Made by a program: the position numbers and the translations under genes. DNA of 64,000 nt, taken from assembly GCA_030535245.1 (NCBI GenBank), contig JAUNBJ010000002.1, positions 2,418 to 66,417 of the forward strand, in the 5' to 3' direction. The notes under the pieces were generated by a model. The model did not search any database, was not told the DNA's origin, and was given only the letters and a program-made list of their open reading frames with translations. Below, one piece after another: positions 9,410 to 59,697 of this stretch. The DNA comes from Planctomycetia bacterium (GTDB taxonomy: Bacteria; Planctomycetota; Planctomycetia; Pirellulales; Thermoguttaceae). How positions within the stretch are numbered: position 1 is the first letter of the stretch; the number at the start of each line of letters is the position of its first letter.

Positions 9410-10162
9410 TTAAAGTGCCTTCACTCGTGGAGAATATTTCGCCACATATTTCGCGTTAAATTCGTCGCCGCCCGGAGCGTTCGCGCTGCGCCACACCGGT
9501 GGCTCAATCCCACGCGCCACGCACTGCTTCACACACTCAATTTCCAGCCGGTGCGCAATGTAAAAATCGACCAGGTTCGAGTTCGGCGCAATCGGCGTCT
9601 CAAACCCCGGAACCGACACCGCACAGTCGCCCACCGGATTGTAATCGTCAATGCACACATCTGCCAAATCGAACAGGTTCTTGCCGCTCGGATGACGAAT
9701 AAAATGCTCCGGCGGCATCTCCTGCTGCCAGTGCGAGGAGCTGACCGCAACGATCTTCACCCCCGCCTTTTTCGCTTCCAACGCCGCGTCGATTGTCGCC
9801 GCATTGATCCCGATGTTGTGGAAAATAATCAGCAGCTCGTCTTTTTGCAGCTTGTAATACCGCATGATGTGCGCTCCGTAATTGACGCACCGTTCCAGCT
9901 CCAGATACTTGAGCGCCTGATTGAAAACGCTCAGCCCCGTCTCCATGATCGGGTTGATGTTCGCCAAACCGCCCGCACGGAAAAACATCTCGCCCATGAC
10001 CAGCGTCGTGTGCCCGCCGCCGCCATACACGTGAATCAGTTGATCCGCCGCCACCGCGTCGGCCATCATGCCTCCCGCCTTCTCGATGTTCGCCTGCTGC
10101 TCCGTTTCAATCCGTCGGTACACTTCCAACGTCTTTTCCAAATACCCAAAATCGTTTGCCAT
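9410..10162 (-). CDS. SIS (sugar isomerase) domain protein
   Basis: Start MANDFGY at 10160-10162 is preceded by GGGAGAGG; the ORF-track N-terminal extension is rejected. SIS-like LIHVYGGGGHTT and LLIIFHNIGINAATIDAALEAKKAGVKIVAVSS. Confidence 0.7.
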   Translation of the reverse strand: MANDFGYLEKTLEVYRRIETEQQANIEKAGGMMADAVAADQLIHVYGGGGHTTLVMGEMFFRAGGLANINPIMETGLSVFNQALKYLELERCVNYGAHIMRYYKLQKDELLIIFHNIGINAATIDAALEAKKAGVKIVAVSSSHWQQEMPPEHFIRHPSGKNLFDLADVCIDDYNPVGDCAVSVPGFETPIAPNSNLVDFYIAHRLEIECVKQCVARGIEPPVWRSANAPGGDEFNAKYVAKYSPRVKAL

Positions 10163-15061: not shown

Positions 15062-15188
15062 GGAAAACTCCTTCCTGGGAATCTGTAGGGCCATTTGGCC
15101 ATTATAGTCCAAATTGGGAAAAAATCACCCCCCAACCCCGATAGGCCCCCGCACGACGTACGCTACCCAGCTTGCCACACGGTTGGGG

Positions 15189-34579: not shown

Positions 34580-34865
34580 GTTTTTTCTCCTTGTTCTTTG
34601 TTTGTTGCATTGATAATTGATAATTGGGGGGGCCTCCAGAAAACTTTTGACGATGGCTTTCCCGTGGAACCAACCTTACCACCTTTCCCATTGGCTGTCA
34701 AGGAAACAGGACAGATTTTGTCCAGGGAAGGATATTTTGACGAAAAACTCCTGAACCGATGAAAATAGTGCGTATCGATTGGGGCCAAATGCCGAAAAGG
34801 ATAGAAACGTGACCCGGTGGGAAGGGAAAAGTCGCGAAAACGTGGAATCAACCAGAACGCATGAA

Positions 34866-36104
34866 ATGATGAAGATTTTACATACCTCCGACTGGCATTT
34901 GGACGCGCGACTCTACAATCAACGCAGGTCGGCGGAGCATGAGGCTTTTTTGGAGTGGCTGCGGCAGACGATTCGTGAGCAGCAGGTGCAACTGTTGGTG
35001 GTGGCGGGCGATATTTTCGACAACCGGACGCCAACGCTGGAATCGCAGGAGCGGTACGTTGCGTTTCTCATGGGGTTGTACGAGGATTCGATCCGGGGAA
35101 AGAGCGTTTGCCGGAACGTCGTGCTGATTGGCGGGAATCATGATTCTGCGTCGTTTTTGGAGATTCCGAAACCGATTTTGCAGCACTTACGTATCCACGT
35201 CGTGGCGAGGAAGCCCGCGCGGTGGGACGATCTGGTGTTGGAAATGAAGGACGATGCGGGGAAAACGGAGGCGGTGGTTGCGGCGTTGCCGTTCCTGTCG
35301 GACGTCGATTTGCGTCGGAGCGTGGAGGGGGAAACCCTTGAGGAGAAGAACCGTCACCTGATGGAGGGGATTCGCGACGCGTACAAGACGCTGGCGGAAA
35401 TCGCGACGACCAAACGTTCCGCCATTTCTACGGAAGCGTTCGTGCCCCTCATCGCGACCGGGCATCTGTTCACGCAGGGGGGCGACGCGGGGGATGGCGT
35501 GCGGGAAATCTATACGGCGGGGAACTTGGAGAAATTCCCGGCGGCGTGGATTCCGGAGCGGTTTGACTACACGGCCCTGGGGCACCTGCATTTACCGCAA
35601 ACGGTGGGGGGGCGGGAGAACGTGCGCTACAGCGGGTCGCCGATTCCGGTCGGTTTTCAGGAGGCGAAAACGGCCAAGCAGGTCGTTCTGGTCACGTGGG
35701 AGGGGGATGGAAAGCGGAGCATCGAGTTGCGTGACGTTCCCCGGTTTCAGCGGTTGGAGACGGTATCGGGGGATTGGCCGGAACTGGAAGCGAGCCTGAA
35801 AACGTTGAAAAAGATGGATGAACCGGTCTGGCTCCAGGTGCGTTATACGGGGAAGGCATTTCGCCCCATGCTTCAGCGAGACGTGGAGGAACTTTTGGAA
35901 GATTCGTCGGTCGTTTTGCTGCATTTGCAGAGCACGGCGGCCAGCGACCGGGGGTTGGTGCCGAATTTTTCCGGGGAGACGCTGGAATCGCTGGAGCCGT
36001 TGGAGGTTTTTCGGCGGGTGCTGGACGCGTGTAAAATTCCGGACGAGGAGCGGGACGAATACATTCAGACGTATCGGGAGGTATGGGAATCATGCGGATT
36101 TTGA
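34866..36104 (+). CDS. sbcD: Exonuclease SbcCD, nuclease subunit D
   Basis: M(M)KILHTSDWHLD, GDIFD, GNHD and LGHLH calcineurin-like phosphoesterase motifs. Overlaps sbcC. Confidence 0.85.
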   Translation: MMKILHTSDWHLDARLYNQRRSAEHEAFLEWLRQTIREQQVQLLVVAGDIFDNRTPTLESQERYVAFLMGLYEDSIRGKSVCRNVVLIGGNHDSASFLEIPKPILQHLRIHVVARKPARWDDLVLEMKDDAGKTEAVVAALPFLSDVDLRRSVEGETLEEKNRHLMEGIRDAYKTLAEIATTKRSAISTEAFVPLIATGHLFTQGGDAGDGVREIYTAGNLEKFPAAWIPERFDYTALGHLHLPQTVGGRENVRYSGSPIPVGFQEAKTAKQVVLVTWEGDGKRSIELRDVPRFQRLETVSGDWPELEASLKTLKKMDEPVWLQVRYTGKAFRPMLQRDVEELLEDSSVVLLHLQSTAASDRGLVPNFSGETLESLEPLEVFRRVLDACKIPDEERDEYIQTYREVWESCGF

Positions 36105-39100
36105 AACTTCGTTTTCGGAACCTGAACTCCCTGGCGGGGGAATGGACGGTGGACTTTACCGACCCGGCGTTTGCGGAGGACGGGTTGTTTGCGATTGTCG
36201 GGCCGACGGGGGCGGGGAAAACGACGATTCTGGACGCCCTTTCGCTGGCGTTGTTCCAGCGAACGCCGCGGTTAAAAAATTTTTCCAAAACCGAAAATGA
36301 AATCATGTCCCGGCAGACGAACGACTGCATGGCGGAAGTGACGTTTTCCGCAGAGGGGAAAACATACCGGGCTTCGTTCGAGCAAAAACGGAGCCGGGCA
36401 GGTTCGCAGAATCCTTTTGGGGAGGTGAAGTGCGAGCTGGCTCAGGCGACGGGAAATGCGGACGGCGATGAGGTTTTGGCGACGAAAAAACAGGCGTTTG
36501 AGGAGAAAATCAAAGCCATCCTCCATCTCGATTTCGACCAGTTTTCGCGGTCGGTACTTTTGGCGCAGGGGCAATTCCGCGATTTTCTTTTCCGACAAAG
36601 TGCGAACGAGCGGGCCGAACTGCTGGAAAAAATCACCGGAACCGGAATTTATACGGAAATCAGTAAAAAGGTTTCGGAGCTATACGGTCAAAAAAAACGT
36701 ATTCTGGAAAATCAGACGACCGGGTTGGAGGCCCTGAAAGCGGGGTTGCTGGGGGAGGAAGAAGCGGTTCGGCGGGCTGAGGAGCGGGAAAAGCGGATCG
36801 CGGAATTATCCCCGTTGGAGGCGGAATTGCGGGAATTGGAGACGCAGATTGCACGGAGGAAAACGCTTCTTTCGCTGGAATCCGAGCGGGCGACATTGGA
36901 GGCACATCGGAAGCAGTGCGACGCCGACCTTGCTGCGTTCGCGCCGGAGAAAAAGCAGCTGGAGCGTCATCGTCGGGCCGTTCCGCTGAAACCGTTGTTC
37001 CGGGAAACGGAGGGGTTGCGGAAGGCGCTTGCCGAGAAACGAACCGCGTTGGAAACGGAGAAAACCGCGTGGGAAACGGTATCTCGAAATCTGGAGGAAC
37101 TCCTGCCGCAGATGGTCGCTGCAAAGGCGTCGCTGCAAGCGGCGGAACAGATGCAGGCGGAGGAGACCCCTCTTTTGGCGAAAGTCCGGATTTGGGATCA
37201 GGAGATTAAAAACCACGAAAAGGCGTGGAACGAGGCGAAGCAGAATCTTCAAAAGCGTCGGCAGCATTGGGAGGAAATCCGCAGGAAGCGGGCGGGGTTG
37301 GAAAGCGACAAACAGCGGGTGGAAGTGGTCCGGCAGGAGCAAACCGCGTTGCGGGAGGCGCGTCGGGAGCGGCTTGGCGAGCGGACGGCGGCGGAAATTT
37401 TGACGGCCCTGCATACGATTCAGGAACGGCATCGGAATTGGCAGCAAATGTGGGATGGGGTGGTCGCGTGGGAAAAGAATCGCGAAAACCAGGCGGTTCA
37501 GGCGGAAACGTATGCGCGTATCGTGGCGGAACAGACGCAGTATCAGGCGGAACAGCGTGCAATCACCGCGAAGCTGGAAGCGTTGCGGGAGGAAATCGCG
37601 TCGCAGAACCGTACCGTCCAGCGGTCGGAGGATGTGGAAAACCTGAAGGAATACCGAAGCCGGCTGACCGAGGGGGAACCATGCCCGCTTTGTGGGGCGA
37701 CGCACCATCCGTTGGAACTGCCGCAGCGTGAAATCACCGCAGAGCGGGCAAGGCAGGCGGCGTTGAAAGAGGAGGAGCAGAGACTTCTTTCCCGGCAGGT
37801 TGCGTTGGCGGAGAAAGGGGGGCGGCTGGAAGCGGACGGGAAGCATTCCCAACAGCGGCTGGCCGAACGGGTCGAGGAGGAAACCGACCTGCAACAGCGG
37901 CTTGCGGTGTGGACGCAGCAACTGGCGTTGGAATCGCTGCCGGAAAAAGAGGGGATTCAGGCGAAGATCACCGAACTGGAAGCGGAGGAAACGGAGCTTG
38001 CGGAGGATTCCCGGCAGGCGGCAGACTGGGACGCGAAGATTGCGGAAAAAACGTCGGAAATGGAAGCGTTGGAGCGGAATTTGAAATCGTGGGACGCGTT
38101 GGAAGTGGCCGAGGCGACGGCCGAGCGGGAACAGACCGACGCTCTGGAAGAAACGCGGAAATGGGAAACGGCGTACATGGCAAGCCGGAAGGAGCGTCAG
38201 GAGAAATTTCAGGACAAAAATCCGGACGATGTGGAACGGGCATTGGCCGCGGCGGTTCGCGAAGCGCATAAAGAATACTCGGAACGGAAAGCGCAGAAAG
38301 AGAAATGGGAAATGGCGGTGACGATGCGTGAGGTATCGTGGAAAAGAGCCGCATCGGAAGTGGCGGATGGGGAATTTGGATTGGCCCGGCAGGAGGCGGA
38401 GTGGGCGGAAGCGCTTCGGGTGGCGCAATTCACCGACGAGCGGGATTTTCTGGCGGCGCAGCTGACGCAAGAGGAACAGGAACGGAAGGAAAAACGGCAG
38501 GAGGAACTGCACGCAACGGACACGCGTTTAAAAATTCAACTTCAATCGGTGATGGAACGGCTGGAGCAGGAGCGTCGGCAGCCTGCCCCGACGGGGAATT
38601 TGGAGGAATTGCTGGAACGTCAAAAGAGGGGGAAGGAGCAACAGAAGAAAACCATCGAGTGCATCGGGATGTTGGAGGAACAGCTCCGGCGAAATCGGCA
38701 ATTACTCGAAAAAGTTGCGGAGGAAACGGCAAAAATCGAGGGGATTCAGCGAGAAACCGACCGTTGGCAGAAGCTCCACCAACTCATCGGCGGGGAGCGA
38801 AATCCCCGTTTTCGGCGGCTGGTGCAGCGGCTTTCGCTGGAAATTTTGTTGGGAAACGCGAATTTACAACTTCAGCGACTGGCACCGCGGTACCTGCTGG
38901 TTCTGCCGTCGGACGATGGGGATAAAGAGCTTTCCATCGCCTGCCGGGATACTTTTTTCAATGATGAAATTCGTCCGGTGAGCAACCTTTCAGGGGGGGA
39001 GACGTTTCTGGTGAGCCTGGCGCTGGCGTTGGGTCTGTCAAAGATGTCCAGCCGCAACGTCCCGATGGAATCGCTGTTTTTGGACGAGGGATTTGGGACG

Positions 39101-39292
39101 CTCGATGAGGAAACGTTGCAGGCGGCATTGGAATCGCTTTCGTTGTTTCAATCGGGGGGCGGGGAGCAGAAGCTGATTGGCATTATTTCGCATGTGGAGA
39201 CCCTGAAAGAACGGATTGCGAACAAGATAGAAGTCCTTCCCGGAGCCATGGGCCGCAGCCGTTTGCAGGGTAACGGAATAAAAACAGGTTGA
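36092..39292 (+). CDS. sbcC: Exonuclease SbcCD, ATPase subunit C
   Basis: MRILKLRFRNLNSLAGEW. Walker A GPTGAGKTT. Long coiled coil with CPLCG zinc hook. C-terminal LSGGETFLVSLALAL signature and LFLDEGFG Walker B. Confidence 0.85.
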   Translation: MRILKLRFRNLNSLAGEWTVDFTDPAFAEDGLFAIVGPTGAGKTTILDALSLALFQRTPRLKNFSKTENEIMSRQTNDCMAEVTFSAEGKTYRASFEQKRSRAGSQNPFGEVKCELAQATGNADGDEVLATKKQAFEEKIKAILHLDFDQFSRSVLLAQGQFRDFLFRQSANERAELLEKITGTGIYTEISKKVSELYGQKKRILENQTTGLEALKAGLLGEEEAVRRAEEREKRIAELSPLEAELRELETQIARRKTLLSLESERATLEAHRKQCDADLAAFAPEKKQLERHRRAVPLKPLFRETEGLRKALAEKRTALETEKTAWETVSRNLEELLPQMVAAKASLQAAEQMQAEETPLLAKVRIWDQEIKNHEKAWNEAKQNLQKRRQHWEEIRRKRAGLESDKQRVEVVRQEQTALREARRERLGERTAAEILTALHTIQERHRNWQQMWDGVVAWEKNRENQAVQAETYARIVAEQTQYQAEQRAITAKLEALREEIASQNRTVQRSEDVENLKEYRSRLTEGEPCPLCGATHHPLELPQREITAERARQAALKEEEQRLLSRQVALAEKGGRLEADGKHSQQRLAERVEEETDLQQRLAVWTQQLALESLPEKEGIQAKITELEAEETELAEDSRQAADWDAKIAEKTSEMEALERNLKSWDALEVAEATAEREQTDALEETRKWETAYMASRKERQEKFQDKNPDDVERALAAAVREAHKEYSERKAQKEKWEMAVTMREVSWKRAASEVADGEFGLARQEAEWAEALRVAQFTDERDFLAAQLTQEEQERKEKRQEELHATDTRLKIQLQSVMERLEQERRQPAPTGNLEELLERQKRGKEQQKKTIECIGMLEEQLRRNRQLLEKVAEETAKIEGIQRETDRWQKLHQLIGGERNPRFRRLVQRLSLEILLGNANLQLQRLAPRYLLVLPSDDGDKELSIACRDTFFNDEIRPVSNLSGGETFLVSLALALGLSKMSSRNVPMESLFLDEGFGTLDEETLQAALESLSLFQSGGGEQKLIGIISHVETLKERIANKIEVLPGAMGRSRLQGNGIKTG

Positions 39293-39460: not shown

Positions 39461-42400
39461 ATGGCCAAACCATTTCTGCACATCAATCTTTCGGAGGAAG
39501 CGCAGTTCTTCCGTCCCGTCGCTCTGGAACCGGGGTGCCCCCTGTTTGACCCTACGAATGCCAACGATCGGATTCTTTTTCGTTGGTTTGGAGGGATGAC
39601 GCCGGAGCCGGAATGGGACGAAAACGGCCAGATTTTGCGATTTTTTATTCGGAACGATCAGGGGGGGCGTTTGGAGGACGTAACCTGCACGACCGTGACG
39701 AACGAGGATTTGAACGAGAAGTTGATTACGGAAATTGAGCGTCTGCAAGCGCGGTTCGAGCGGATTCGGGCCACCTCAACGACGGAGAAGATTTTACGGG
39801 AAAAACTTTCGGAAGAATTTCGGGATTTAATTGAGAATAAAAAGCGGCCGGATCGGACGTATTATTTCTTTAAGTATCAGGATGGCGGCGGGCTGACGCG
39901 GTTGGTCTGGATACCGGGGTATGCACCGATCCATCAGGAATATGGCGCGCCGATGATTTGTGACGACGAGGCGTGCAATCAGCTTTACGTGCGGCTGCCG
40001 GGGGCGAAGGCGCGGTGTCCGATCTGTTTGAAGGTTCCGACGGCGCGGCGGAAGGCGATAGAGGCGGCACGGCGGAAGCGGAATCGTTATTTGCTGCTCT
40101 GTTTTTTGCTGCTTTTGTGTGGATGGATTCTGTGGAATCAGTTTACGTTGAAGGTGAAGCCGGGGCCATGGAACACGTATGTGGGCTGTGCGTCGGACTT
40201 TCGGGTGATCACGCCGGGGCTGGATGGTTTTGGGCTGATTTTGTCGAAGGATGTGACGGACGAGGTTTTTAAGACGGTGGAGAATCCGTCGGTAGCCTGT
40301 TTTCCGGAGGGGGGAATGCGCGCGTACGCCGTCAGTCCGGGTGAGACGAAGATGCGGTTTTATTCTGGCTGGCGTTTTGGCGGGGTGAAGGTCACGGTTC
40401 ATCCGCCGGTGAATCCGAATCGGGTCTGGATTGAGCCGGAAAATATAACGCTGGCGGTCGGTTCGACGCAGCGGGTGAAGCTGATGGGCGAATACGAGGG
40501 GGGCCAGACGGCGGAGCTTTCGCAGAGCACGTATTGGGATTCGCGAAACGACGGGACGGTGTATCATTTTAATGGTTTCGTGGAGGGGTTGCAGCCTGGG
40601 GAAACGAACCTTTCGGCGAAATATCGTGCCACGCCCAAGGATGCGTGGATGGACGCTTCGGCCACGGTTTCGGTGGCGTCCAAGACGTTGGAGTCGCTGG
40701 AAGTCAAAGCGGTTCATGCGGGGCCTTTGCCGGTGGGGAAGAAGTCCCGGATTGAGGTTTTGGGCAAAACGGCGGAGGGGGAGGAGTATGCGTTTACAGG
40801 TTCTTCGCGTCTGGAGGCGGTGATTGATCCACCGTCGCTGGCGACGTACCAGGGGGAAACGATTCAAACGCTTCAGGCGGGCACGGGGCGATTGCAGGCG
40901 ACGTTGACCGACGGCACACCAGAGGGGGCGGCGCTTCAGACGGCGGAAATGGTGTTGGATATTGAGGATGTCGCGACGACGGCCCGGCTGCGGGTTTATC
41001 CGAAGGAAGCGTCGATTGCGGTGGACGAGCTGTTCCCGCTGTCGGTGGTGTGCGGGGATGTTTCGGCGTTGAAAATCACGTCGGCGAATCCGAAGGTGGT
41101 GCGTGTGGGGAAGGATCACTGCCTGATTGGGCGTTCGGCGGGGACGACGGAAATTACGGTGGAGGATGGTACCGGTTCGGTGGTGATTCCGGTGACGGTC
41201 GCGAACGTGAAGGCGGACGGGCTGGTGATGGTTCCGCCGTCGGGTGCGGTTCCGGTGGATCATGACACGACGTTCCGGTTCTTTGCGCGGGCAGGTTCGG
41301 AGCGGTATTATCCGCTGGCGCCGGGGGTGGTCAAGACCGACGCGGTGCCGAATGGGCGGTATGCGCTGGCGGACGGGCTGAAGGCGAGGGTTCGTGGGTT
41401 GAATCCGACGGATGCTGCCGATCCGCAGTCGGTAACGTTCAGCTACCAGGGGCAAAAGGCAAAGACGTCGGTCAAAGTGATTCCGGCGCCGTTGCGGTTG
41501 AAGATTACGCCGTCGGGGAAGGTGGCGTTGCCGTTGGGGTTGTGCATGACGTTTGACGGTTTCGCGGTTTATGGGGACGGGGTAAGCACGCTTGTTCCCT
41601 ACACGCGGATGGAGTGGAATACGGAACCTGCGGCGGCGGAAGTGGCCGGATTCGGGTTTGAAAAAGGAAAGGCGATGGCGTTGGACGTAGGGGCAGGGCC
41701 GGTGTCGATTTGGGGGAATTATTTTGGGACGGAATCGAATCGTGCGGAACTGACGACGACCGAGCGGACGGACGTGACGTTGGGGATCGAGGTGGATCGA
41801 ACGCTTCGGGTGGCCGGGGAGCCGGGGACGGCGATCCTGACGGGCAAGACGGTTCACGGGGATGTGGAGTTGGTTCCGAACGTGGGCAAATTCAGCACTT
41901 CCCAGGCGGACGTGGTGGCGGTTACGGGGGAGAATAGTGGCAGTTACAAGGCGGTGGCGGCGGGAGCGGCGTCGCTTTCGGCCACGCACCCTGCGGCGGA
42001 GCAGCCGGCGAGCGTCGATTTGCGGGTGGTTCATCCGCGAAACGCCCGGCTTTACTGGGAGCCGTCGGAAGTGAACGTGGCGGTGGGGGAGATTGCGCCG
42101 TTCCAGTTGATGCTGGAGGGGACGAACCCGGACGCTGCCGAGGGGGAGGAAACGGAGTGGTCGGTTCCGATGGATTCGCCGGGGGTGTACTATTCATTCG
42201 GAAAGCCGGACGCGGTTTTGTGGCGGAGTCCGACGTTATCTGGAATACAGCCAGCGGAGGCGTTTGACGTTTCGGCGTCGTATCTGCCGTATTTGAAGAA
42301 TCCGGCGCACGCGAAGGTTTCGGTATTTGGAGCCAATCCGCCGCAGGCGTTGCGGGTGGTGCCGTCGGAGGTTTCCCTGGCGCCGGGGCAGGCGATGAGT

Positions 42401-45400
42401 TTTGCGGTGGAGGAGCAGTTGGAAGGTGCGGAAGGCTTTACGGAAGTGCAGCCGGACGACGTGAAGTGGGAAGTTCCGAGGAATGTATACTGGCGTGGCC
42501 CGATGGGGCAGATTCGTCCGCAAGTGGAGATTCCGGCGGACGAGGCGGCGGGGAGTTTCACGCTGCGGGCGAAGTACCGTGGCAAGACGGCGGACGTAAC
42601 GGTTACGGCGGCGCCATCGACGTTGAACCCGGCGGATCCGGAGGTGGAGTTGTTGGTGCGGCGGTATCCGGCGGGGCGGTTGTTGCCGGTGGGGCAGGCG
42701 CAGAGCTATTCGATCTGGATGAAGAAGGGGGAGGTGGAGGAACCGGCGCCGAATGTCCGTTGGACGCCGGATTTTGAGAACGAATATTTGACGTGGAGTG
42801 CTCCGGTAATGGAGGCGACCAAGGCGGGCTTGACGCAGTGGATTACGGCGAAGGTGGGGGATCGTGCGGTGCGGTTCTTTACGCAGACGATGGATCCGTT
42901 TGTTCCGGGCGAGGTGCCGCCGCCGCGAGAGGGGGATCCGTCGGCCGTTCGGATTCTCAGCAACAGCGGTACGGAAGTATCCATGGCGGTGGGGGCGAAG
43001 TACGTGGACTATCGGGTGGAGGCGGAGTATCCGGACGGATTCATTCGTGTGGTGACGAAGGACGCGAACCTGCATCCGATTGCGGGGGACAAGTCGATTG
43101 TCAGTCCCAGCAACGGCGAGTTGACGGCGGTCAAGCCGGGGAAGGTGACGTTCATTGCCGAGTACATGGGGGTGGACAGCGAGGAGCCGCCCCTCACGTT
43201 GAACGTGACGGAGAGCGTGGATGTGGACGAGTTACGGCTGGAGCCGGACAAGGACATCCGTATGCTTCCGAACGAGACGGTGACGTTCCGGCTGCATGGC
43301 TACAAGGAAAAGAAGTCAGTCGGTTTGCTGACGGGGATGGGGAATATTGTCTGGAAGTCGGACAACGAGGCGGTCGCCACAACGCAGGGGCCGGTAACGA
43401 CTTCGGTGGCGTTGGGCAAGGCGAACATTACGGCGGAGTTGAATGGCGTCGTGAGCAAGCCGGCGGCGGTGGACGTGGTGGCGACGATCGACGAAAAGCT
43501 GGGGCCGACGGACAACGTGATCAAGATGTTGGTGGGTGAAAGCAAGCTGGTGGGGAAGGATTTTGCGCTCATCCGTGGGAATGTCGATTTCAGTATGCAG
43601 TGTGGTGTGACGCCGCTGGTTCCGGGGATTTGCGAGTATGACGCGACGCGTCATGCGTTGGTGGGGAAGGCGCCTGGGGCGACCGACGTGATCTTCACGA
43701 TGGCGGACAAGAAGGCGGTCATGCGGGTGATCGTGGGCGGTGTGGATGCGCAGACGCTGACGATGTTGAAAGAGGATGGCGAGATTATCGTGGAACCGGC
43801 AGCGGCGTCGATTTCGGCGGGCCAGGCGATCGAGCTGCGGGTTTACGCGGTATCCAAGGATCGTACGGTGCGGTTGGAGCGGACGGCAAGTGCGGTGTTC
43901 CGCAGCAGCGATCCGTCGGTCTGCGAGGTACGTGGTTTGCAGCTTTGCGGGCTGAAGCCGGGCGGCCCGGTGGAGATTACCGTGATGATTCCGGAGATTA
44001 CCGGGAAGGGGCGTTCGGGGAAGGCGTCGTTGACGGTGGACAATCATCCGATTACGGAACTGGTGGTGGAGCCGGGGGCGATTCGGATGTCGACGGGCGA
44101 CAAGTCGAATCTGTTTATTCAGGGGCGTAGTGCCAGCGGCCTGCTTCCGCTGTTTGCGCAGTCTCGGTTGAAGGTGGCGACGGACGGCCCGGCGGCTCGG
44201 ATGAACGGCATTCAGAGTGTCGAGGCGGCGGCTGCGGGGGACTGCAACGTGAATATTGATTGGGACGGCAAACTTCAGCGTTCGGTAGCGGTGAAGGTGG
44301 ACGACAATCCCTACACGAGCCTGGCGATCGACCCGGTGAGCACGACGTTGGCGGTGGGCGAGGGTCGCGCGTATCAGGTGACGGCGCTTCGTGGCGGTCG
44401 GTTGTACGTGCTTCAGCCGGAGACGGGGCTTCAGTTGACGACGGCGGATCCGAACGTGGCGGTGGTTCAGGGGAACATGGTTTTTGGCAAATCGGTGGGA
44501 CGTACGACGGTGGTCGCCCGGTTTGCGGGGCTGGTTTCGGAAGGAACGATCGACGTGGTGGAGCCGGGAGCGGTGCCGACGAGCGTCGAGGCGGCGTATG
44601 TGGATCCGAACGCGGCGGTAACGTACCGGACGGGCGACACGGTGCTGGACGGGGGGTATCGCGGGGTGGTCAGTACCGACGTATTTGGCGACGGTGTGGC
44701 GCCGTATGCGGTGACGGATTATGCGGTGACGGGCGTATCGGGGTTGCGGTTTGAGCCGGCGTCGATGCGGCTTTCGCGGTCGTCGGGGCCGGTAGCGGTG
44801 CGGGTGTTCGAGGAAATGTCGAACGGAACGCTGGGTCGTGAGGTCAGTAACGATCCGAATTTGAAGGTGGAATCCGCGTCGTCGGTGGTTCAGATCAGTC
44901 GTGCGGAGAATGGCCCATACATGATTCAGCCGGCGGGGAAGGATGGAACGGCGCGTGTATCGGCCACGTTGGGCGACAAGACGGCGTTGCCGATGTTCGT
45001 GCAGGTGGGCGAGGTTTCGGCGGCGGGGGCGGTGCTTTCGGCATTGCCGGGGACGTTGGAAATGAGCGTGGGGAACACGGCGGTGTTGGATTCGGTTCGG
45101 GTGATTCCGGACGCGGGGATGATGCCGTTTGACATTGCGTATCGTCTGACACCGACGGATGGTGGCGGCGTGGTTTCGGTGGAGGGAACGACGATCCGTG
45201 CAACGGCACCGGGCACGACGCGATTGCAGGTGACGTCGGTGGATCCGCAGGGGGTTTACGACAACATGACGACGTTCGTTCCGGTGACGGTAACCAAACC
45301 GTTGCAGTTGACGCTTTCTCCGATGGAATCGTCGTTGCGGGTGGGGGATCGGACGGCGCCGTTTGTGCTGATGGCGCGGGATGAAACGGGGGCGTCGTTC

Positions 45401-45874
45401 CCGGTTTCTGCGGCGTTTACGTCAACCGACCCGTCGATTTTGCAGCAGGACGCGATGGATCCGTCGCGATTCCAGGCGGTGTCGCTTGGGAGTGCCCAGG
45501 TGCGGGCATCCTATGGGGGGCAGGAGCTTTACGCGAATGTTTCCGTGGCGGGCGACCGATATTTGAATGTGGAGGGATCGCTCAGCGAGCGGGACAGCGA
45601 CTTTACGGTCATGCTGACGGTCACGGCGGGCAGCAGCCAGGGGGCGTTGGAGTATCGGATTTACGAGATGGGGAGCAATCCGCCGGACGCGTGGGTTCCG
45701 GGGACTCCGGGTGCGGACGGGCTGACGGTGATGCTGTCGAGTCCGGCGATTCGGTATCGGGGGCGCAACGACCAGTACACGTTGGTCATTGAGTCTCGGA
45801 CGGCGGGCGGCACGGACATACAGAAGTATCCTTACAATTTCCGGTTGGGGGCCATGATTAAGAAAGTGGACTAA
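39461..45874 (+). CDS. Giant (2137 aa) type-II membrane protein: cytosolic about 210-aa N-domain with Cys4 ribbon, one TM segment, then about 1900 aa of Big_2/Ig-like repeats
   Basis: No signal peptide. CDDEAC...CPIC at aa 167-189 (nt 39959-40027). TM segment YLLLCFLLLLCGWILW (nt about 40088-40138). Repeated Big_2-like units, e.g. ITSANPKVVRVGKDHCLIGRSAGTTEITVEDGTGSVVIPVTV. Confidence 0.8.
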   Translation: MAKPFLHINLSEEAQFFRPVALEPGCPLFDPTNANDRILFRWFGGMTPEPEWDENGQILRFFIRNDQGGRLEDVTCTTVTNEDLNEKLITEIERLQARFERIRATSTTEKILREKLSEEFRDLIENKKRPDRTYYFFKYQDGGGLTRLVWIPGYAPIHQEYGAPMICDDEACNQLYVRLPGAKARCPICLKVPTARRKAIEAARRKRNRYLLLCFLLLLCGWILWNQFTLKVKPGPWNTYVGCASDFRVITPGLDGFGLILSKDVTDEVFKTVENPSVACFPEGGMRAYAVSPGETKMRFYSGWRFGGVKVTVHPPVNPNRVWIEPENITLAVGSTQRVKLMGEYEGGQTAELSQSTYWDSRNDGTVYHFNGFVEGLQPGETNLSAKYRATPKDAWMDASATVSVASKTLESLEVKAVHAGPLPVGKKSRIEVLGKTAEGEEYAFTGSSRLEAVIDPPSLATYQGETIQTLQAGTGRLQATLTDGTPEGAALQTAEMVLDIEDVATTARLRVYPKEASIAVDELFPLSVVCGDVSALKITSANPKVVRVGKDHCLIGRSAGTTEITVEDGTGSVVIPVTVANVKADGLVMVPPSGAVPVDHDTTFRFFARAGSERYYPLAPGVVKTDAVPNGRYALADGLKARVRGLNPTDAADPQSVTFSYQGQKAKTSVKVIPAPLRLKITPSGKVALPLGLCMTFDGFAVYGDGVSTLVPYTRMEWNTEPAAAEVAGFGFEKGKAMALDVGAGPVSIWGNYFGTESNRAELTTTERTDVTLGIEVDRTLRVAGEPGTAILTGKTVHGDVELVPNVGKFSTSQADVVAVTGENSGSYKAVAAGAASLSATHPAAEQPASVDLRVVHPRNARLYWEPSEVNVAVGEIAPFQLMLEGTNPDAAEGEETEWSVPMDSPGVYYSFGKPDAVLWRSPTLSGIQPAEAFDVSASYLPYLKNPAHAKVSVFGANPPQALRVVPSEVSLAPGQAMSFAVEEQLEGAEGFTEVQPDDVKWEVPRNVYWRGPMGQIRPQVEIPADEAAGSFTLRAKYRGKTADVTVTAAPSTLNPADPEVELLVRRYPAGRLLPVGQAQSYSIWMKKGEVEEPAPNVRWTPDFENEYLTWSAPVMEATKAGLTQWITAKVGDRAVRFFTQTMDPFVPGEVPPPREGDPSAVRILSNSGTEVSMAVGAKYVDYRVEAEYPDGFIRVVTKDANLHPIAGDKSIVSPSNGELTAVKPGKVTFIAEYMGVDSEEPPLTLNVTESVDVDELRLEPDKDIRMLPNETVTFRLHGYKEKKSVGLLTGMGNIVWKSDNEAVATTQGPVTTSVALGKANITAELNGVVSKPAAVDVVATIDEKLGPTDNVIKMLVGESKLVGKDFALIRGNVDFSMQCGVTPLVPGICEYDATRHALVGKAPGATDVIFTMADKKAVMRVIVGGVDAQTLTMLKEDGEIIVEPAAASISAGQAIELRVYAVSKDRTVRLERTASAVFRSSDPSVCEVRGLQLCGLKPGGPVEITVMIPEITGKGRSGKASLTVDNHPITELVVEPGAIRMSTGDKSNLFIQGRSASGLLPLFAQSRLKVATDGPAARMNGIQSVEAAAAGDCNVNIDWDGKLQRSVAVKVDDNPYTSLAIDPVSTTLAVGEGRAYQVTALRGGRLYVLQPETGLQLTTADPNVAVVQGNMVFGKSVGRTTVVARFAGLVSEGTIDVVEPGAVPTSVEAAYVDPNAAVTYRTGDTVLDGGYRGVVSTDVFGDGVAPYAVTDYAVTGVSGLRFEPASMRLSRSSGPVAVRVFEEMSNGTLGREVSNDPNLKVESASSVVQISRAENGPYMIQPAGKDGTARVSATLGDKTALPMFVQVGEVSAAGAVLSALPGTLEMSVGNTAVLDSVRVIPDAGMMPFDIAYRLTPTDGGGVVSVEGTTIRATAPGTTRLQVTSVDPQGVYDNMTTFVPVTVTKPLQLTLSPMESSLRVGDRTAPFVLMARDETGASFPVSAAFTSTDPSILQQDAMDPSRFQAVSLGSAQVRASYGGQELYANVSVAGDRYLNVEGSLSERDSDFTVMLTVTAGSSQGALEYRIYEMGSNPPDAWVPGTPGADGLTVMLSSPAIRYRGRNDQYTLVIESRTAGGTDIQKYPYNFRLGAMIKKVD

Positions 45875-46052
45875 AATCGGAGAGGCATTGCGGGGTTGCG
45901 TTTTTCGCGGCCCTGTGGGTAACTATTCCTTGTTATTATTTATGGCAGCTTTTAAAAACGCGATTCCGACCGAAAGGGTGATTTATCGTTTGGGTTCGGG
46001 GAGCGGTTTTTCGAAGGTGTCTATCACGACAACAACGTAACACGAGAGAGCT

Positions 46053-52635: not shown

Positions 52636-55260
52636 ATGGGAACTTATCAATGCAGTAAATGTGGTTATTGCCTTCAGCAGCCGACCGAACCGTTTCATTG
52701 TCCGCAGTGTGGCAGTCAGGGAATTGGACTGTTCCGTGCCATGCCGGACGGTGGGGGTTTTGGTGGGGCGCCGCAGGGGGGTGGTTATCGCCCGCAGCAG
52801 GGGGGATTTTCTCCGAACGGTGGTTATGGTGCCCCGCAGCAGGGGGGGGGATACTCGCCGAATCCGGGGGGATATACCACGAACCGGCCATGTTTTGGTG
52901 GGGCGCCGCAGGGGGGGGGAAACCCATCGCAGCAGCAGCCGTCGGGCGGTTTTGGGGGATATTCGCCGCAGCCGAACAACACCTTTAACGCACCGGGGCA
53001 AGGGGGGGGATACCGTCCGCAGCAGCCCGGTTTTGGGGGACAGCAGCCATCGACGGGGGGATATCGTCCGCAGCAGCCGTTTGGCGGCCCGCAGCAACCG
53101 TTTGGAGGGCAGCAGCCGTCGGGCGGTTTTGGGAGCGGTCAGGCGGGGTATCCGTCCAATGGTGGGGGGTATCGTCCGCAGCAGCCGTTTGGCACGCAAC
53201 CTGCCGGAGGTATGCCGGGTGGCTCAGTTCCGGGTGGCTCAGTTCCGGGGGGTTCGGTACCGGGCGGGGCGATCCGGGGTGGTTTTGGCGGGATGAACCC
53301 AGGCAATGCGGCCAATCGGATGCCGTTTGGGGGGCAACCGCAGCAGCCGCAGCAACCGTTTGGTTCTCAGCCGCAGCAGCCGTTTGGCGGGCAAGTGCAG
53401 GCTCCGTTTGGGGGGCAGCCACAACAGCCATTTGGCGGACAACCGCAGCAGCCACAGCAACCGTTTGGTTCCCAGCCGCAGCAGCCGTTTGGGGGGCAGC
53501 CGCAACAGCCGCAGCAACCGTTTGGGGGCCAGCCGCAGCAGCCGTCCGCATTTCCGTCGCAGCCGTTTGTGCCGCAGGCTCCGGTGCAGGAACCGATTCC
53601 GCAGGCACCGGTACAGGCCCCCATGCCGCAGGCGCCCGTACAGGCTCCAGTTTCGCAAACTCCCATGACGGAGCCGGTACCGCAGCCGGTTCCTCAGGTT
53701 CCGGTGCAGCCCTCCGTTCCTCAGACGCCACCACCGTCGCCGCAGCCGCCCACGCAGGCACCCATGCCGCAGCGTCCGGCACAGGCTCCGGTACAGCGAC
53801 CAGCGGCTCAGGCGCCCGTGCAGCGTCCAGCGCCGCAGGCTCCGGTGCAGCGACCGGCGGCACGTCCGGCACCGCGTCCGGCGCCGCAGCAGCAACGGCC
53901 CGCGCCGCCGCGACAGAATTTTCCCGCCCCGCCCAGCATGGAGGAAGCACCGGCGAAAAAGTCAAAGCCGGCGCCGAAACCGGGGATTCAGGTACGGGGC
54001 AAGCCGATTCCGAAGCAACCGGCGGGGCGTCCTGCGTCGGCCAACGATCCCAAGGCGCGTCCGCGTTATCGTGCTCCGGAACCCCGTCCGCAGGTTCGGC
54101 CGGATGTGGACCGTCCAGAGCGGTGTTTCTGGGGATTCCCGGAGGTTCCGCCATTTACCTGCGACGCGAAGCCGATGAAAAACGCTCCGGTGCTTGACGA
54201 CAAGGGGCGGTTGGTGCTGGTTTCGCAGGGGAGCCTGTACGCGATAGACATTACCACACCGGAGCCGGAGATTTGCTGGGAGTACATCATCAAGTCGCAC
54301 GTTCCGGGGCCGATTGTCGTGGATGCGGAGGGGGATTATCACCTTCACAGTGCGGACGGCTACCTGCATTGCGTTACGAAGCATGGCAAGCAGTCGTACA
54401 TGCCGGTACAGATTGGCGAACCGTTGGGGTATGCCGCGCCGGTTGTGGACGCATGGGGCAACACCATCGTCAGCGATTACAACGGCGGGTTGATTCGTGT
54501 GTCGAAGGAGGGGAAGAAGGATTCGCGTCCTTATTTCCGGTGCCGTGCGAAGCTGGATTCGTCGGGGGTGATTGCGGGCGAAACGCTCTACATCGGTTCG
54601 GAGGAAGGGTACCTGTTCGCCATTCAGCTTGGGGAAGTGGGGAAAAACCTCTGGGATCAGGGGGCCGAAGTGGGTTACGCGGGGGGCTTTTTGAACTCGT
54701 CGCCGGCGGTGACGAAAGACGGGATTATCGTCGTCGCCACGCGAACGGAGAAGTTGATGGGTTTCCTGCCCAGTGGGGAGGTGGCCTGGTCCACGCACAT
54801 GCCGGGGCAGCTTTTGGGTTCGCCGGTGATCGACGCGTACGGGCACATTTACGTGGGGGCCAGCTTGTCAACCCGTCAGGGGGGGCAGGGGTATCTGGTC
54901 AGCGTGGATGGGAATTCGCACAAAATCCGCTGGCAGTTTCAGGCCGAGGAGATGGTGGAGTGTACGCCGGTGGTGGGGGACGACGGCACGATTTACTTCG
55001 GGGACAACGCCGGCTGGGTGTATGCCGTTTCGCCGCGAGGGGACAAGAAATGGGGCGTCCGATTTGAGGCTCCGGTCCGTTCGGCGGGAACGATTGTGGC
55101 CCCGAACGTGCTGGCATTTGCGTTGGACGACGACGTGCTGGTGGGCATCCGTTGCGAATCGACCGACCTGGGGGGCGACTGGCCGAAGTTGGGGCGTGAC
55201 AATTACCACTCGTTTGTTGGGCCGACGCCTCCACCGGTGGTGATTGGTTCGGAAGAATAA
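52636..55260 (+). CDS. Cytosolic Zn-ribbon / FG- and PQ-rich disordered region / PQQ-like beta-propeller protein
   Basis: CSKC...CPQC at aa 6-25. aa 40-300 are G/P/Q-rich with about 17 FG dipeptides (QPFGGQPQQ units). aa about 305-495 are Pro-rich (PQAPVQ units). aa about 515-874 have PQQ/BamB-like repeats (GTIYFGDNAGWVYAVSPRGDKKW). No signal peptide or TM segment. Confidence 0.75.
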   Translation: MGTYQCSKCGYCLQQPTEPFHCPQCGSQGIGLFRAMPDGGGFGGAPQGGGYRPQQGGFSPNGGYGAPQQGGGYSPNPGGYTTNRPCFGGAPQGGGNPSQQQPSGGFGGYSPQPNNTFNAPGQGGGYRPQQPGFGGQQPSTGGYRPQQPFGGPQQPFGGQQPSGGFGSGQAGYPSNGGGYRPQQPFGTQPAGGMPGGSVPGGSVPGGSVPGGAIRGGFGGMNPGNAANRMPFGGQPQQPQQPFGSQPQQPFGGQVQAPFGGQPQQPFGGQPQQPQQPFGSQPQQPFGGQPQQPQQPFGGQPQQPSAFPSQPFVPQAPVQEPIPQAPVQAPMPQAPVQAPVSQTPMTEPVPQPVPQVPVQPSVPQTPPPSPQPPTQAPMPQRPAQAPVQRPAAQAPVQRPAPQAPVQRPAARPAPRPAPQQQRPAPPRQNFPAPPSMEEAPAKKSKPAPKPGIQVRGKPIPKQPAGRPASANDPKARPRYRAPEPRPQVRPDVDRPERCFWGFPEVPPFTCDAKPMKNAPVLDDKGRLVLVSQGSLYAIDITTPEPEICWEYIIKSHVPGPIVVDAEGDYHLHSADGYLHCVTKHGKQSYMPVQIGEPLGYAAPVVDAWGNTIVSDYNGGLIRVSKEGKKDSRPYFRCRAKLDSSGVIAGETLYIGSEEGYLFAIQLGEVGKNLWDQGAEVGYAGGFLNSSPAVTKDGIIVVATRTEKLMGFLPSGEVAWSTHMPGQLLGSPVIDAYGHIYVGASLSTRQGGQGYLVSVDGNSHKIRWQFQAEEMVECTPVVGDDGTIYFGDNAGWVYAVSPRGDKKWGVRFEAPVRSAGTIVAPNVLAFALDDDVLVGIRCESTDLGGDWPKLGRDNYHSFVGPTPPPVVIGSEE
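53323..53545 (+). repeat. In-frame tandem DNA repeats encoding (Q)PFGGQPQQ(PQQ) units
   Basis: Reiterated ccgtttggnnnncagccgcagcag units. Two about 57-nt segments (about 53335-53390 and about 53440-53496) are near identical. Confidence 0.7.
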
Positions 55261-56913: not shown

Positions 56914-59430
56914 TTGGGCCTGATTCTGGCGATGGGTTGCGGGATGGCGGCGTATGGTGTCGAGATTGGGTCAGGCACGACGATTACCGTTACCAATACG
57001 GACTGGGCGACGAAACTTCCCGACACGATGAACTTTTCCGGCGGAACGCTGGTGATCAATCCCACATCAGATATTACCATTTCACGTAATGCGGTCTTTG
57101 CGGCCAACACGACCAGTACCATCACCTCAGGTGGCAGTGCCACGTCACTGTTAAGCGGGGCACTTTCCGGTTCGGGAACAATTACCAAAGGCGGTACCAC
57201 CCAGCAGTTGCATTTTTCGGGTAATAATTCCGCATTTACCGGAACGTTGAACGTCAGTTCCAATTGGGTCAATTTCCGAAATACCGGAGCGGCTCTTTCC
57301 TCTGGAACGGTTAACTTCAATGGTGGCACGGGATTTGTTCTGGTTCCTTCGGCCAATGGGGAGGTTTTCGCTTTCGGCATGATTACTTCCAGCACGGGAA
57401 CTCCAGAAGTCCGGGTTACTGGCGGAAACGCATACGCCGCAACGATTCGGGTCGGCGGAACCAACGCCAGTGGAACGTTTGCTGGTAAGATGCTCGATAA
57501 CTCCACCAATACGGCTCTTTCGGTCGAGAAGGTTGGCACGGGAACATGGACGCTCACGGGAACCAGTTCGTATACGGGAGCCACCACCATTTCCGCAGGA
57601 ACGCTTCAACTGGGCAATGGGACGGCTTCCGGGTTTTTGGGGGGCATGATGGCTGTAGACGGTGCATATACCGGGACAGCGACTGCGATTACCGTGGCAT
57701 CGGGGGCAACGCTTGCTTTTAACAATGTCGGTAACGCGACCAGAACGCATAACACGATTACATTCAACGGCGGTAATCTGTCGGTTACAGGGGCGCAAGT
57801 CAATCTGGGAGGAACGGTTGCGGGAACGGAACTGATCAAAATCGGTTCGGGAACGGCATTCTTCCAGGGGGGGACGACTTCTAATAACGCGACGGTTACG
57901 GTTGGCAAAATTGTCGTCAATGCGGGGGTACTCGCCAACAAAGCGGCACTGACCGCCACCACCACCGACATTACCGTCAACGATGGCGGTACGTTCCAGA
58001 TCGGTTCAGCAACTTATCCAAAAATAGGTTCCGTTCATGCGTCCACCAACATTACCGTCAATACGGGCGGCACGTTTGCCGTGTATGAGAATACGATAAC
58101 AAACGCGATTACGTTCGACGGTGGAAATATCACCTCGAACGATAAAAATGCGACGTTCAGTGGAGCGTTGGATGGCAGTGGACTTGTGAAAACCGGCACA
58201 GGTACGATTACGCTTACCCAGAATTATGCCGGAACCGTCAGTGTTTCTGCCGGGAAGCTGGTTTCCACGGCATCGGTTACGGGAAATATTACGGTAAATG
58301 GCAGTTCTTCCATCCTGCAACTTGGTCTTGGTTCTGAAGGCAGCTCGGGAAGTCTGGGAACGAACACCATTACGCTTTCCAACGGTGGAACGTTTGGTTT
58401 GAATCGTACCGATAGTAATAATTTCAACCTACAGAACAGTATCACGGTTAGCAACGGTGGAACCATTGCCAATTACGGTTCCAAAAACCTCGTTTTGCAG
58501 GGGACGGTTTCCGGGAACGATCTGACACTTTCCAATGAAGGTACGGGGAACCTGTTTTTGCAGAACTTGAGTAGCGAGTGGCCATCCGATTTCACGGGGC
58601 TGACCGGAACGTTGACGATTGCGAAGGGAACCGTAATCAACAAAAATCCCGCCGTCGGAAATGCCGCGAATCCGCTTTCCGTGGTCGTGAAGGATGGGGC
58701 GACGCTCCAGATGGGAAATATCTACAACAACAGCGTTTCCCAAATCCACGGTACGATTGAACTGGAATCGAGGGCCAATTTGATGCTGGGATATGCTCCA
58801 AGTGGGACGACGGCGACGTACGCGAACGACATTTCCGGTGCGGGAACCATCTCCGCAGCATACGGAACCACGGAATTGACCGGTGATAACAGTGCTTTCA
58901 CCGGAGCGGTTAACGTTGGCAGTAATTACACATTGATCGCAAGCGGAGACCAGACGCTCGGCAATTCTGCGGTGACGCTCCGAAGCAACGGCACGCTGGA
59001 AGTTGCGGGCGATCAGAACCTCAAGTCGCTGACACTGGGGGAAAATTCCGATTTAACGCTGGAATCGGGAACGGTTTCCGTTGCGGATAGCTTTGCGGCG
59101 GCAAGCGGTTCGGAGATTACGTTCCTCCTGTCCAATATGGATTCCGCAACCCTCGACCTGAACGGTACTGCCACGTTTAATGACGTTATGGTGTATCTGG
59201 ATACCGTAGAAACGCTTGACATTTGGAAATCGTATGATTTTCTACAGACGGCGATGGCGGAGGGGATTTCTTTTGCTTTGTCCACGAACCTGTTATCGCA
59301 GGGGATGGTGTTGCGATTTACGGAGACGGGATATGCGGTGCAGAATGCGGCGGCATTTCCGGAACCGGCGACCTGGACGTTGTTTTTGCTTATGGGGGTG
59401 TGGATGTGGCGAAAACGTCGAGGGGCTTGA
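56914..59430 (+). CDS. PEP-CTERM-anchored surface protein with autotransporter-associated beta-strand (PATR) repeats; 5' end probably frameshifted
   Basis: Repeats such as GTGTWTLTGTSSYTGATTISAGTLQLGNG. C-terminal FPEPATWTLFLLMGVWMWRKRRGA. The ORF-track start is a TTG without RBS or n-region. A better start (GGAGGAAAAG-ATG at 56775) is 1 nt out of frame. Confidence 0.8.
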   Translation: MGLILAMGCGMAAYGVEIGSGTTITVTNTDWATKLPDTMNFSGGTLVINPTSDITISRNAVFAANTTSTITSGGSATSLLSGALSGSGTITKGGTTQQLHFSGNNSAFTGTLNVSSNWVNFRNTGAALSSGTVNFNGGTGFVLVPSANGEVFAFGMITSSTGTPEVRVTGGNAYAATIRVGGTNASGTFAGKMLDNSTNTALSVEKVGTGTWTLTGTSSYTGATTISAGTLQLGNGTASGFLGGMMAVDGAYTGTATAITVASGATLAFNNVGNATRTHNTITFNGGNLSVTGAQVNLGGTVAGTELIKIGSGTAFFQGGTTSNNATVTVGKIVVNAGVLANKAALTATTTDITVNDGGTFQIGSATYPKIGSVHASTNITVNTGGTFAVYENTITNAITFDGGNITSNDKNATFSGALDGSGLVKTGTGTITLTQNYAGTVSVSAGKLVSTASVTGNITVNGSSSILQLGLGSEGSSGSLGTNTITLSNGGTFGLNRTDSNNFNLQNSITVSNGGTIANYGSKNLVLQGTVSGNDLTLSNEGTGNLFLQNLSSEWPSDFTGLTGTLTIAKGTVINKNPAVGNAANPLSVVVKDGATLQMGNIYNNSVSQIHGTIELESRANLMLGYAPSGTTATYANDISGAGTISAAYGTTELTGDNSAFTGAVNVGSNYTLIASGDQTLGNSAVTLRSNGTLEVAGDQNLKSLTLGENSDLTLESGTVSVADSFAAASGSEITFLLSNMDSATLDLNGTATFNDVMVYLDTVETLDIWKSYDFLQTAMAEGISFALSTNLLSQGMVLRFTETGYAVQNAAAFPEPATWTLFLLMGVWMWRKRRGA

Positions 59431-59538: not shown

Positions 59539-59697
59539 AGAATGAGTAGGATATTATGGGTTGAAATTTTTGGGATACTTCTGCTTTCTTGTGTAAACCG
59601 AGAAATATTAAGAAGATAACAATACCGGGTTCCCTTTCGGTGCTTGAAAAAGCGACGTGAAAAAAGGGACATTAGCCGGAGAGTTTTTGGACAAGCC

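Follow-up and report, generated by a model that had tools for sequence, protein, structure and literature searches.

The window analysed here is a stretch of 64,000 nucleotides (nt) from contig JAUNBJ010000002.1 of a Planctomycetia bacterium (Thermoguttaceae), and this work concerns a cluster of five genes within it, named g1 to g5 in their order, which is followed closely by the gene of a PHP hydrolase, g6. The cluster is a divergent variant of SrfABC, a system that has a name but an obscure mechanism; the SrfC genes of these metagenome-assembled genomes (MAGs) had already been named by NCBI. All six open reading frames (ORFs) are co-directional (Table 1), and the intergenic gaps from g1 to g6 measure 178, 40, 111, 45 and 33 nt, exactly as in a preliminary description made from the sequence alone. 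No terminator-like hairpins were found in these gaps, the region being poorer in such sites than shuffled sequence, and an Rfam scan returned no RNA family in the window. A hydrophobicity scan detected a segment of transmembrane (TM) grade in g1 only, and none of the five cluster proteins carries a signal peptide; the absence of both features from g2 to g5 had been correctly described. The nearest relatives of the locus were gut and rumen Thermoguttaceae MAGs, and g4 was 100% identical to NCBI locus Q4D98_00520. With many homologues for each of them and a conserved synteny, g1 to g5 are genuine genes.

Table 1. Coordinates of the cluster genes, their parts and related features (window positions, unless a locus number, L, or residues, aa, are given)
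Feature	Position	Strand	Basis or remark
g1: SrfA-like bitopic anchor, 2137 aa	39461..45874	+	ORF, N-domain family, synteny
g1 cytoplasmic N-domain (aa 1-205), SrfA-N-like, weakly kinase-like fold	39461..40075	+	hhalign, AF2, Foldseek
g1 Cys4 ribbon (aa 167-189)	39959-40027	+	family-invariant C167, C172, C186, C189
g1 single TM helix (aa 212-230)	40094..40150	+	Kyte-Doolittle
g1 ectodomain, ~1900 aa, beta-rich Ig/Big_2-like modules, C-terminal ..YPYNFRL.. motif	40151..45871	+	sub-threshold Pfam, recurring motif
g2: SrfC-family P-loop NTPase, 868 aa	46053..48659	+	PF10139 match, Walker A
g2 Walker A (GPSQVGKS, aa 76-83)	46278-46301	+	invariant
g3: SrfB-family putative Hsp70/actin-fold ATPase, 941 aa	48700..51525	+	PF07520 match, Hsp70 nucleotide-binding domain blocks
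g4: Planctomycetota-specific cytosolic protein, 317 aa	51637..52590	+	homologues, synteny, AF2 model
g5: Zn-ribbon, P/G/Q linker and PQQ/BamB-type propeller, 874 aa	52636..55260	+	PQQ_2 match, ribbon, composition
g5 Zn-ribbon	aa 1-30
g5 disordered linker	aa ~36-560
g5 PQQ/BamB-type propeller	aa ~620-860
g6: PHP/CehA-McbA-type metallohydrolase, 439 aa	55294-56613	+	Tat-like RRxF N-terminus
vWA/PP2C genes in L035-L037, L041-L045, L051, L053, L062	about 1.1-4.5 kb		immediately 5' of anchor gene
Triad with kinase-like/WD40 gene	L025 15502-20746		3' of cluster
SrfA-N paralogues (examples)	L009 4361-6889; L077-L091 (e.g. L085 16178-21541)

Protein families of the cluster

Two of the genes belong to named families. 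g2 matched the SrfC profile (PF10139, Virul_Fac) with 185.9 bits for a cut-off of 28.1 (E 1.7e-54, profile positions 25-628 of 878), and g3 matched the SrfB profile (PF07520) with 284.8 bits for a cut-off of 27.1 (E 1.9e-84). The SrfB/SrfC pair had been named in the preliminary description as the nearest known relative of an otherwise undescribed system; with both scores far above the curated cut-offs, the genes are true members of these families. Close homologues of g2 bear the NCBI name 'virulence factor SrfC family protein', and identities across Planctomycetota ranged from 46 to 91%. By tblastn, genes annotated as 'virulence factor SrfB' were found on 144 plasmids. Compared by sequence, neither SrfB nor SrfC had a relative among solved structures.

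An alignment of planctomycete and proteobacterial SrfC revealed two invariant motifs: the Walker A (G76, S78, Q79, G81, K82 and S83) and a Walker B- or switch-like DxxDxPG motif (D374, D377, P379 and G380). Both had been noticed before and stood, but the dynamin class that had been read from them did not. Relaxed Pfam searches with g2 (E<=1) gave Virul_Fac and a weak AAA_16 match (aa 1-516) and no Dynamin_N or GTPase profile, and PDB profile searches with SrfC returned solely the Walker A of FliI, with an E value of 0.16. A dynamin/GTPase class is therefore unsupported, and the term 'dynamin-style' reflects an impression from motifs. SrfC does share with bacterial dynamin-like proteins (BDLP, LeoA) the large P-loop architecture, a G1 and a DxPG-type G3 that are visible by eye, and the vicinity of a membrane. 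Unlike them, it has no dynamin or GTPase profile match, its G4 (TGID/TKFD) lacks a conserved lysine, and no paddle or TM region is present.

In SrfB, the blocks DxGNS, DxGGGxxD and LLxGxP were invariant between planctomycete and proteobacterial sequences. The nucleotide-binding domains of DnaK were the sole matches of the SrfB profile among 177,635 PDB sequences (E ~1). Alignment by hhalign with the nucleotide-binding domain of Hsp70, represented by HscC and three DnaK sequences, scored 40.1 (E 5.6e-4; shuffles <=19.2), and the phosphate-1 (E 3e-3), phosphate-2 (E 1e-4) and adenosine (E 3.5e-5) blocks were colinear, falling in order on Hsp70 positions 6, 169-192 and 277-361. From these alignments it is supported that SrfB is a family of putative ATPases with an Hsp70-like nucleotide-binding domain. 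Three of the five nucleotide-binding motifs announced for g3 were thus recovered, but the HSP70 Pfam model (PF00012) did not match SrfB at E<=0.01; SrfB also differs from Hsp70 by its large insertions, and no J-domain protein was found. The N-terminal ~140 aa of the planctomycete SrfB are distinct from those of proteobacterial SrfB, and overall identity between the two is 24-28%.

The third partner of the canonical system, SrfA, is described as a protein whose cytoplasmic domain (SrfA-N), kinase-like but non-catalytic, is joined by a TM helix to a lipocalin-like domain in the periplasm that carries FLNGxW / CxDGS motifs (bioRxiv 10.64898/2026.09.18.752743). The size of g1, its lack of a signal peptide, the four cysteines of its N-domain and its one TM helix were all as first described: aa 212-230 was the sole 19-mer with a Kyte-Doolittle mean above 1.8. 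A word-indexed homology search with the N-domain gave no match, and the family was found by index-free HMMER only. Searched with aa 1-240, this returned 283 cluster representatives in which the domain was invariably N-terminal; near residue 200 came a TM helix, and beyond it an ectodomain that varied from ~300 to 2200 aa. Compared by hhalign with five SrfA sequences only, the N-domain family showed a weak relationship (Prob 17%). It became convincing with 32 SrfA-N domains, taken from plasmid-borne canonical srf loci and a scan of a genome collection: Prob 85%, E 6.2e-6, a score of 41.6 and 139 colinear columns, the controls (reversed, 30 column-shuffled and 4 unrelated alignments) scoring 9-18. 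Models at the HMMER level fail to detect SrfA-N in g1. Profile comparison thus identifies the putative cytoplasmic N-domain of g1 as a remote homologue of SrfA-N, and g1 as a predicted bitopic inner-membrane protein with the topology of SrfA. The AlphaFold2 (AF2) model of the N-domain was confident (pLDDT 92.4, pTM 0.86), and its top 14 Foldseek matches in the PDB were all HipA/HipT-type kinases (E 0.03-0.5, template-modelling scores 0.2-0.3), which may weakly and independently echo the published kinase-like fold of SrfA-N.

The ectodomain had been described as an array of Big_2-like repeats. A Big_2-type strand motif indeed recurred in it at a spacing of ~90 aa, but no Pfam match on g1 exceeded its threshold: Big_2 (E 0.0017), aBig_2, HL_N-beta and Ig_TMEM132 all remained below. 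When g1 was compared with itself by blastp, no repeats emerged at E<1e-3; the Ig-like modules are therefore highly diverged. Anchors of this family fall into two length classes, ~870-1200 aa (Pirellulaceae-type) and ~1850-2300 aa (Thermoguttaceae-type), and many members of all lengths share the C-terminal motif ERKIGD..RYPFxFxL, of which the window protein has its own version (Table 1).

g4 had 25 homologues; the named ones, and all examined contexts, were from Planctomycetota. The preliminary description had attributed to it a GrpE-like C-terminal domain, an assignment that we had to abandon. GrpE (PF01025) was absent from Pfam and NCBIfam searches at E<=10, which returned no significant family, as well as from the matches of whole-protein and C-domain profiles to PDB sequences. 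The AF2 model (mean pLDDT 71) began with long helices, continued in a helical bundle predicted with confidence (aa 167-263) and ended in a small beta domain; with it, Foldseek found nothing in the PDB below E 0.3, and GrpE was not in the top 50. Against eight GrpE sequences, hhalign scored 17.3 (E 0.075), with shuffles at 6-19.4. The best local alignment sat on the GrpE block 'G..FDP..H.A', and a permissive alignment placed three GrpE blocks colinearly; for these reasons a very remote relationship may exist.

These data bear on the idea that SrfB and g4 form a dedicated Hsp70 chaperone or export motor, with g4 as a GrpE-derived nucleotide exchange factor, which would thread or hold the 2137-aa g1 while it is inserted into the membrane. 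We regard it as quite improbable. The Hsp70-like domain of SrfB, the GrpE-like layout of the g4 model, a small helical-plus-beta protein encoded beside SrfB, and the local match with its three blocks would agree with it, but the g4/GrpE score did not leave the shuffled background and none of the profile or Foldseek searches gave GrpE. Moreover, canonical SrfA of 420-480 aa also pairs with SrfB and SrfC, and anchors of ~870 aa keep g4, so that the size of the substrate is not the driver. A further candidate, that g4 corresponds to the ~330-aa gene conserved 3' of proteobacterial srfC, was rejected (hhalign Prob 0.3%); that gene encodes a bitopic Sel1-like protein.

The composition given beforehand for g5 was correct. 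Its N-terminus forms a rubredoxin-like Cys4 ribbon, the linker (aa 36-560) is rich in P (23%), G and Q (16% each) and contains 17 FG dipeptides, and the propeller matched PQQ_2 (PF13360) at aa 669-813 with 53.6 bits, above the cut-off of 27.6. An analogy to membrane coats and their uncoating had also been drawn. Like membrane-coat-like proteins of the Planctomycetes-Verrucomicrobia-Chlamydiae (PVC) bacteria, this planctomycete protein has a beta-propeller. The analogy failed on the second element: no alpha-solenoid family was matched in g5 by Pfam, the region before the propeller is the low-complexity P/G/Q linker, and the propeller is of PQQ/BamB type.

Conservation of the cluster and of its neighbours

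A genome scan with SrfB gave at least 515 relatives. The best 80 of these loci were analysed with hidden Markov models built from our own alignments; they include 52 species-level loci of Planctomycetota, where SrfB identity was 41-88%. Identity then fell sharply to 24-28% in Myxococcota, Alphaproteobacteria, Bacteroidota and others. Counting only Planctomycetota loci with sufficient flanking sequence, the order g1-SrfC-SrfB-g4-g5 was kept in ~90%. SrfC lay 5' of SrfB in 45 of 46 loci and a g1-type protein 5' of SrfC in 36 of 40 (a truncation at the contig edge explains one of the remaining four), while g4 followed SrfB in 32 of 36 and the g5 propeller followed g4 in 29 of 31. The view that the five genes are one conserved unit, which joins a giant membrane-anchored protein to cytosolic P-loop and Hsp70-fold NTPases, was therefore borne out. 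Among the best 80 of the at least 515 relatives, g4 and g5 were confined to Planctomycetota; they are obligate syntenic partners limited to this version. Elsewhere A, B and C genes co-occurred in other orders: A-B-C in Proteobacteria, B-A-C in Myxococcota and B-C-A(-A-A) in Bacteroidota. The PHP hydrolase g6, which had been counted as an adjoining gene, recurred solely in the closest relative (L014); it was rejected as a sixth member and probably lies outside the system.

Conservation was uneven along the cluster. Median identity to the window proteins was 63% for SrfC, 66% for SrfB, 48% for the g4 C-domain, 47% for the g5 propeller, 40% for the g1 N-domain and 36% for its ectodomain. Putative signalling genes recurred beside the cluster in ~20 loci altogether. 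A vWA and PP2C gene lay directly 5' of the anchor gene in ~12 Planctomycetota loci, in ~4 of them together with a kinase-like gene, and an FHA gene was located 5' on the opposite strand in ~7 further loci (e.g. L007 1602-2867). Ser/Thr kinases were encoded near the cluster in several loci, among them the window itself (59644-61572).

A constant NTPase switch coupled to a variable Ig sensor, with vWA, PP2C, kinase and FHA proteins as a relay, could describe a defence or conflict system. The array would then detect invaders or adjacent cells at the envelope, with the threshold set by SrfB and SrfC. We consider this unlikely, although several observations lean towards it: the NTPases are conserved (medians of 63-66%) and the ectodomain varies in length (870-2300 aa) and sequence, phosphorylation-related genes adjoin the cluster, toxin-antitoxin and PDDEXK genes lie beside one locus, proteobacterial copies are plasmid-borne, and there is a thematic nearness to GAP1-N2 GTPase-centric systems. 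The DO-GTPase/GAP1-N2 systems combine an NTPase switch with Zn-ribbons, HSP70 and GrpE, a membrane protein with FNIII repeats and kinase-PP2C-vWA genes; they were reported in planctomycetes, in a paper that does not mention Srf (PMC7159879). The similarity is one of themes in the parts list, compared by description only, and the core families differ, SrfC and SrfB here, DO-GTPase and GAP1 there. PADLOC-DB 2.0 gave no model match apart from a sub-threshold one between SrfB and PDC-M61B (14 bits, E 0.0038), no effector was recognisable, and the genes flanking the cluster in the window are ordinary (SbcCD, a hydrolase). That conservation is high and synteny stable from family to family rather suggests a vertically inherited function of housekeeping type.

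Relation to SrfABC

We propose, and hold to be probable, that these five genes form a version of the SrfA/SrfB/SrfC module specific to Planctomycetota, with a cytosolic NTPase complex docked on the tail of the anchor. With g2 an SrfC, g3 an SrfB and g1 combining an SrfA-N-like domain with the topology of SrfA, the cluster appears to be a divergent SrfA-SrfC-SrfB system, in line with the co-occurrence of the A, B and C genes in varied orders in other phyla. It resembles SrfABC of Salmonella enterica, Xenorhabdus stockiae and Haemophilus parainfluenzae in the presence of SrfB, SrfC and an SrfA-N-like bitopic partner, in their tight linkage, in the lack of signal peptides on SrfB and SrfC, and in nearby vWA genes, which in plasmid loci follow canonical srfABC. 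It differs from them by the gene order A-C-B, by the Cys4 ribbon gained by the anchor, by a ~1900-aa Ig-like array in place of the lipocalin-like domain, by the distinct N-terminus and low identity of its SrfB and by two extra obligate genes. It also has neither the Lol-like ABC/SUMF1 cassette nor the 'postC' gene of the Sel1-like bitopic protein. The term 'undescribed system' of the preliminary description can thus not be kept: g2 and g3 are SrfC and SrfB, g1 carries a remote homologue of SrfA-N, and the set is a divergent, expanded SrfABC. The preliminary description had also considered that the set might map onto a characterised system of known function; this is half the case, since SrfABC is named and its mechanism is still obscure. 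In the literature searched we found no description of a planctomycete Srf system, of g4, of g5 or of a link between g1 and SrfA.

Several points weigh against our proposal. The order g1-SrfC-SrfB is not that of canonical srfABC. The kinase-like Foldseek matches of the g1 N-domain were weak even at their best, NCBIfam models, including the SrfA model of the cited preprint, gave no match to g1 at E<=10, and the FLNG / NGxW motif of the lipocalin-like C-domain of SrfA is absent from g1. Interaction, nucleotide hydrolysis and co-transcription are inferred only, and the experiments on SrfABC (a swarming defect in Salmonella, cytotoxicity of Xenorhabdus proteins expressed in E. coli) define no mechanism.

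If the proposal holds, the following sequence of events would be plausible. g1 would be inserted with its N-terminus inside and its C-terminus outside, so that its ~20 Ig-like modules are displayed in the periplasm or at the cell surface. The SrfA-N-like domain and the Zn-ribbon of g1 would then serve as docking platform for SrfB, which would recruit SrfC; this is the order of the published AlphaFold3 model for canonical SrfABC, in which SrfA-N binds SrfB and then SrfC (bioRxiv 10.64898/2026.09.18.752743). Turnover of ATP or another NTP by SrfB and SrfC might alter the oligomerisation or conformation of the anchor, a change that may act outward, to control the array, or inward, to signal that the array is engaged. 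As accessories specific to the lineage, g4 could assist SrfB and SrfC in their cycle as a cofactor, and g5 could be a propeller scaffold whose long flexible linker would tether it to the Zn-ribbon. The flanking vWA-PP2C(-kinase) and FHA genes suggest that Ser/Thr phosphorylation probably gates the system. A bolder formulation would see in SrfABC as a whole not a toxin but a so far unrecognised kind of machine, mechanochemical or signalling, that spans the envelope: an Hsp70-fold ATPase and a P-loop NTPase on a pseudokinase-like tail would drive or read the array under phosphorylation control, and Planctomycetota would have gained g4, a far-diverged GrpE derivative with an exchange-factor-like role, and g5, a tethered scaffold. 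We offer this version as a speculation that is rather unlikely to hold in full.

A toxin function has also been proposed for SrfABC. Co-expressed in E. coli, Xenorhabdus SrfABC was cytotoxic, export in membrane vesicles was hypothesised (bioRxiv 10.64898/2026.09.18.752743), and the Xenorhabdus genes were reported beside genes for post-translational control of a type VI secretion system. By this model, which also covers Haemophilus, the planctomycete proteins would be a tripartite exported toxin released in membrane vesicles, with SrfA as effector or platform. The membership of g2 and g3 in the SrfC and SrfB families speaks for it, but we think it very unlikely for this cluster. SrfB, SrfC, g4 and g5 have no signal peptide or TM segment, the Ig array replaces the lipocalin-like SrfA-C domain, and no Lol-like ABC module was found among the window genes scanned or the conserved neighbours. 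The g2 identities of 46-91% span Planctomycetota MAGs from animal guts as well as from non-host samples. In Salmonella, furthermore, the srf operon is flagellar-regulated and does not affect virulence dependent on the type III secretion system; srf mutants, the family's sole genetics, have a defect specific to swarming, which fits a surface-related role better than that of a toxin.

SrfB and SrfC occur in many phyla, with at least 515 relatives found here, yet the only functional labels they bear, 'virulence factor' and 'toxin', stem from two enterobacterial studies. A conserved planctomycete version in environmental and gut MAGs argues for a cell-autonomous function in the envelope, as does SrfA-N as a portable adaptor on lipocalin-like, protease and 20-module Ig ectodomains; Hsp70-like and P-loop NTPases that lack export signals likewise argue for a cell-autonomous role. 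For Planctomycetota, our proposal would mean a conserved cluster of five genes by which a giant protein of the envelope is coupled to the cytoplasm. The parts to test would be the docking domain, the nucleotide motifs, the two new cofactors and the phospho-regulators.

Another observation concerned the SrfA side of canonical srf loci, which often hold two or three paralogues with SrfA-N and differing ectodomains (Table 1). One of these is annotated as 'serine protease', and in Larkinella three stand side by side. SrfA-N looks, from these couplings, like a modular cytoplasmic adaptor.

Surroundings of the window cluster and of related loci

Directly 5' of the cluster, the window encodes a 606-aa ankyrin-repeat protein (32759-34579, -) and an SbcD-SbcC pair (34779-39292, +), and 3' of it a PATR (autotransporter-repeat) protein (56914-59430, +). 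None of these genes was kept beside the cluster in relatives. Between about 28000 and 35000 the GC skew of the window changes from negative to positive, with a cumulative minimum near 33-34 kb, where the genes also change from mostly the - to the + strand. Such a pattern suggests a strand switch related to replication; among the window genes, no dnaA was seen.

The window has two Ser/Thr kinase genes. The one at 59644-61572 might relate to the kinase and FHA theme near other clusters. The other, upstream at 15189-17270 (-), also has an anti-sigma-type zf-HC2 finger and Sel1 repeats.

Insertions and accessory genes were noticed in a few relatives. In L008/L026, both from a single Thermoguttaceae MAG, SrfC and SrfB are separated by a PDDEXK_3 gene and a 67-aa ORF (L008 12634-13301), and HicAB, PDDEXK_4 and Phd/YefM-like genes follow 3' of the cluster (L008 20014-22568). 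L001 has a ThuA-like gene between SrfB and g4 (8837-9913) and, nearby, a gene for a 1128-aa protein combining HZS_alpha with an FGE-sulfatase domain (14722-18108); SUMF1/FGE-type enzymes also adjoin proteobacterial srfABC.

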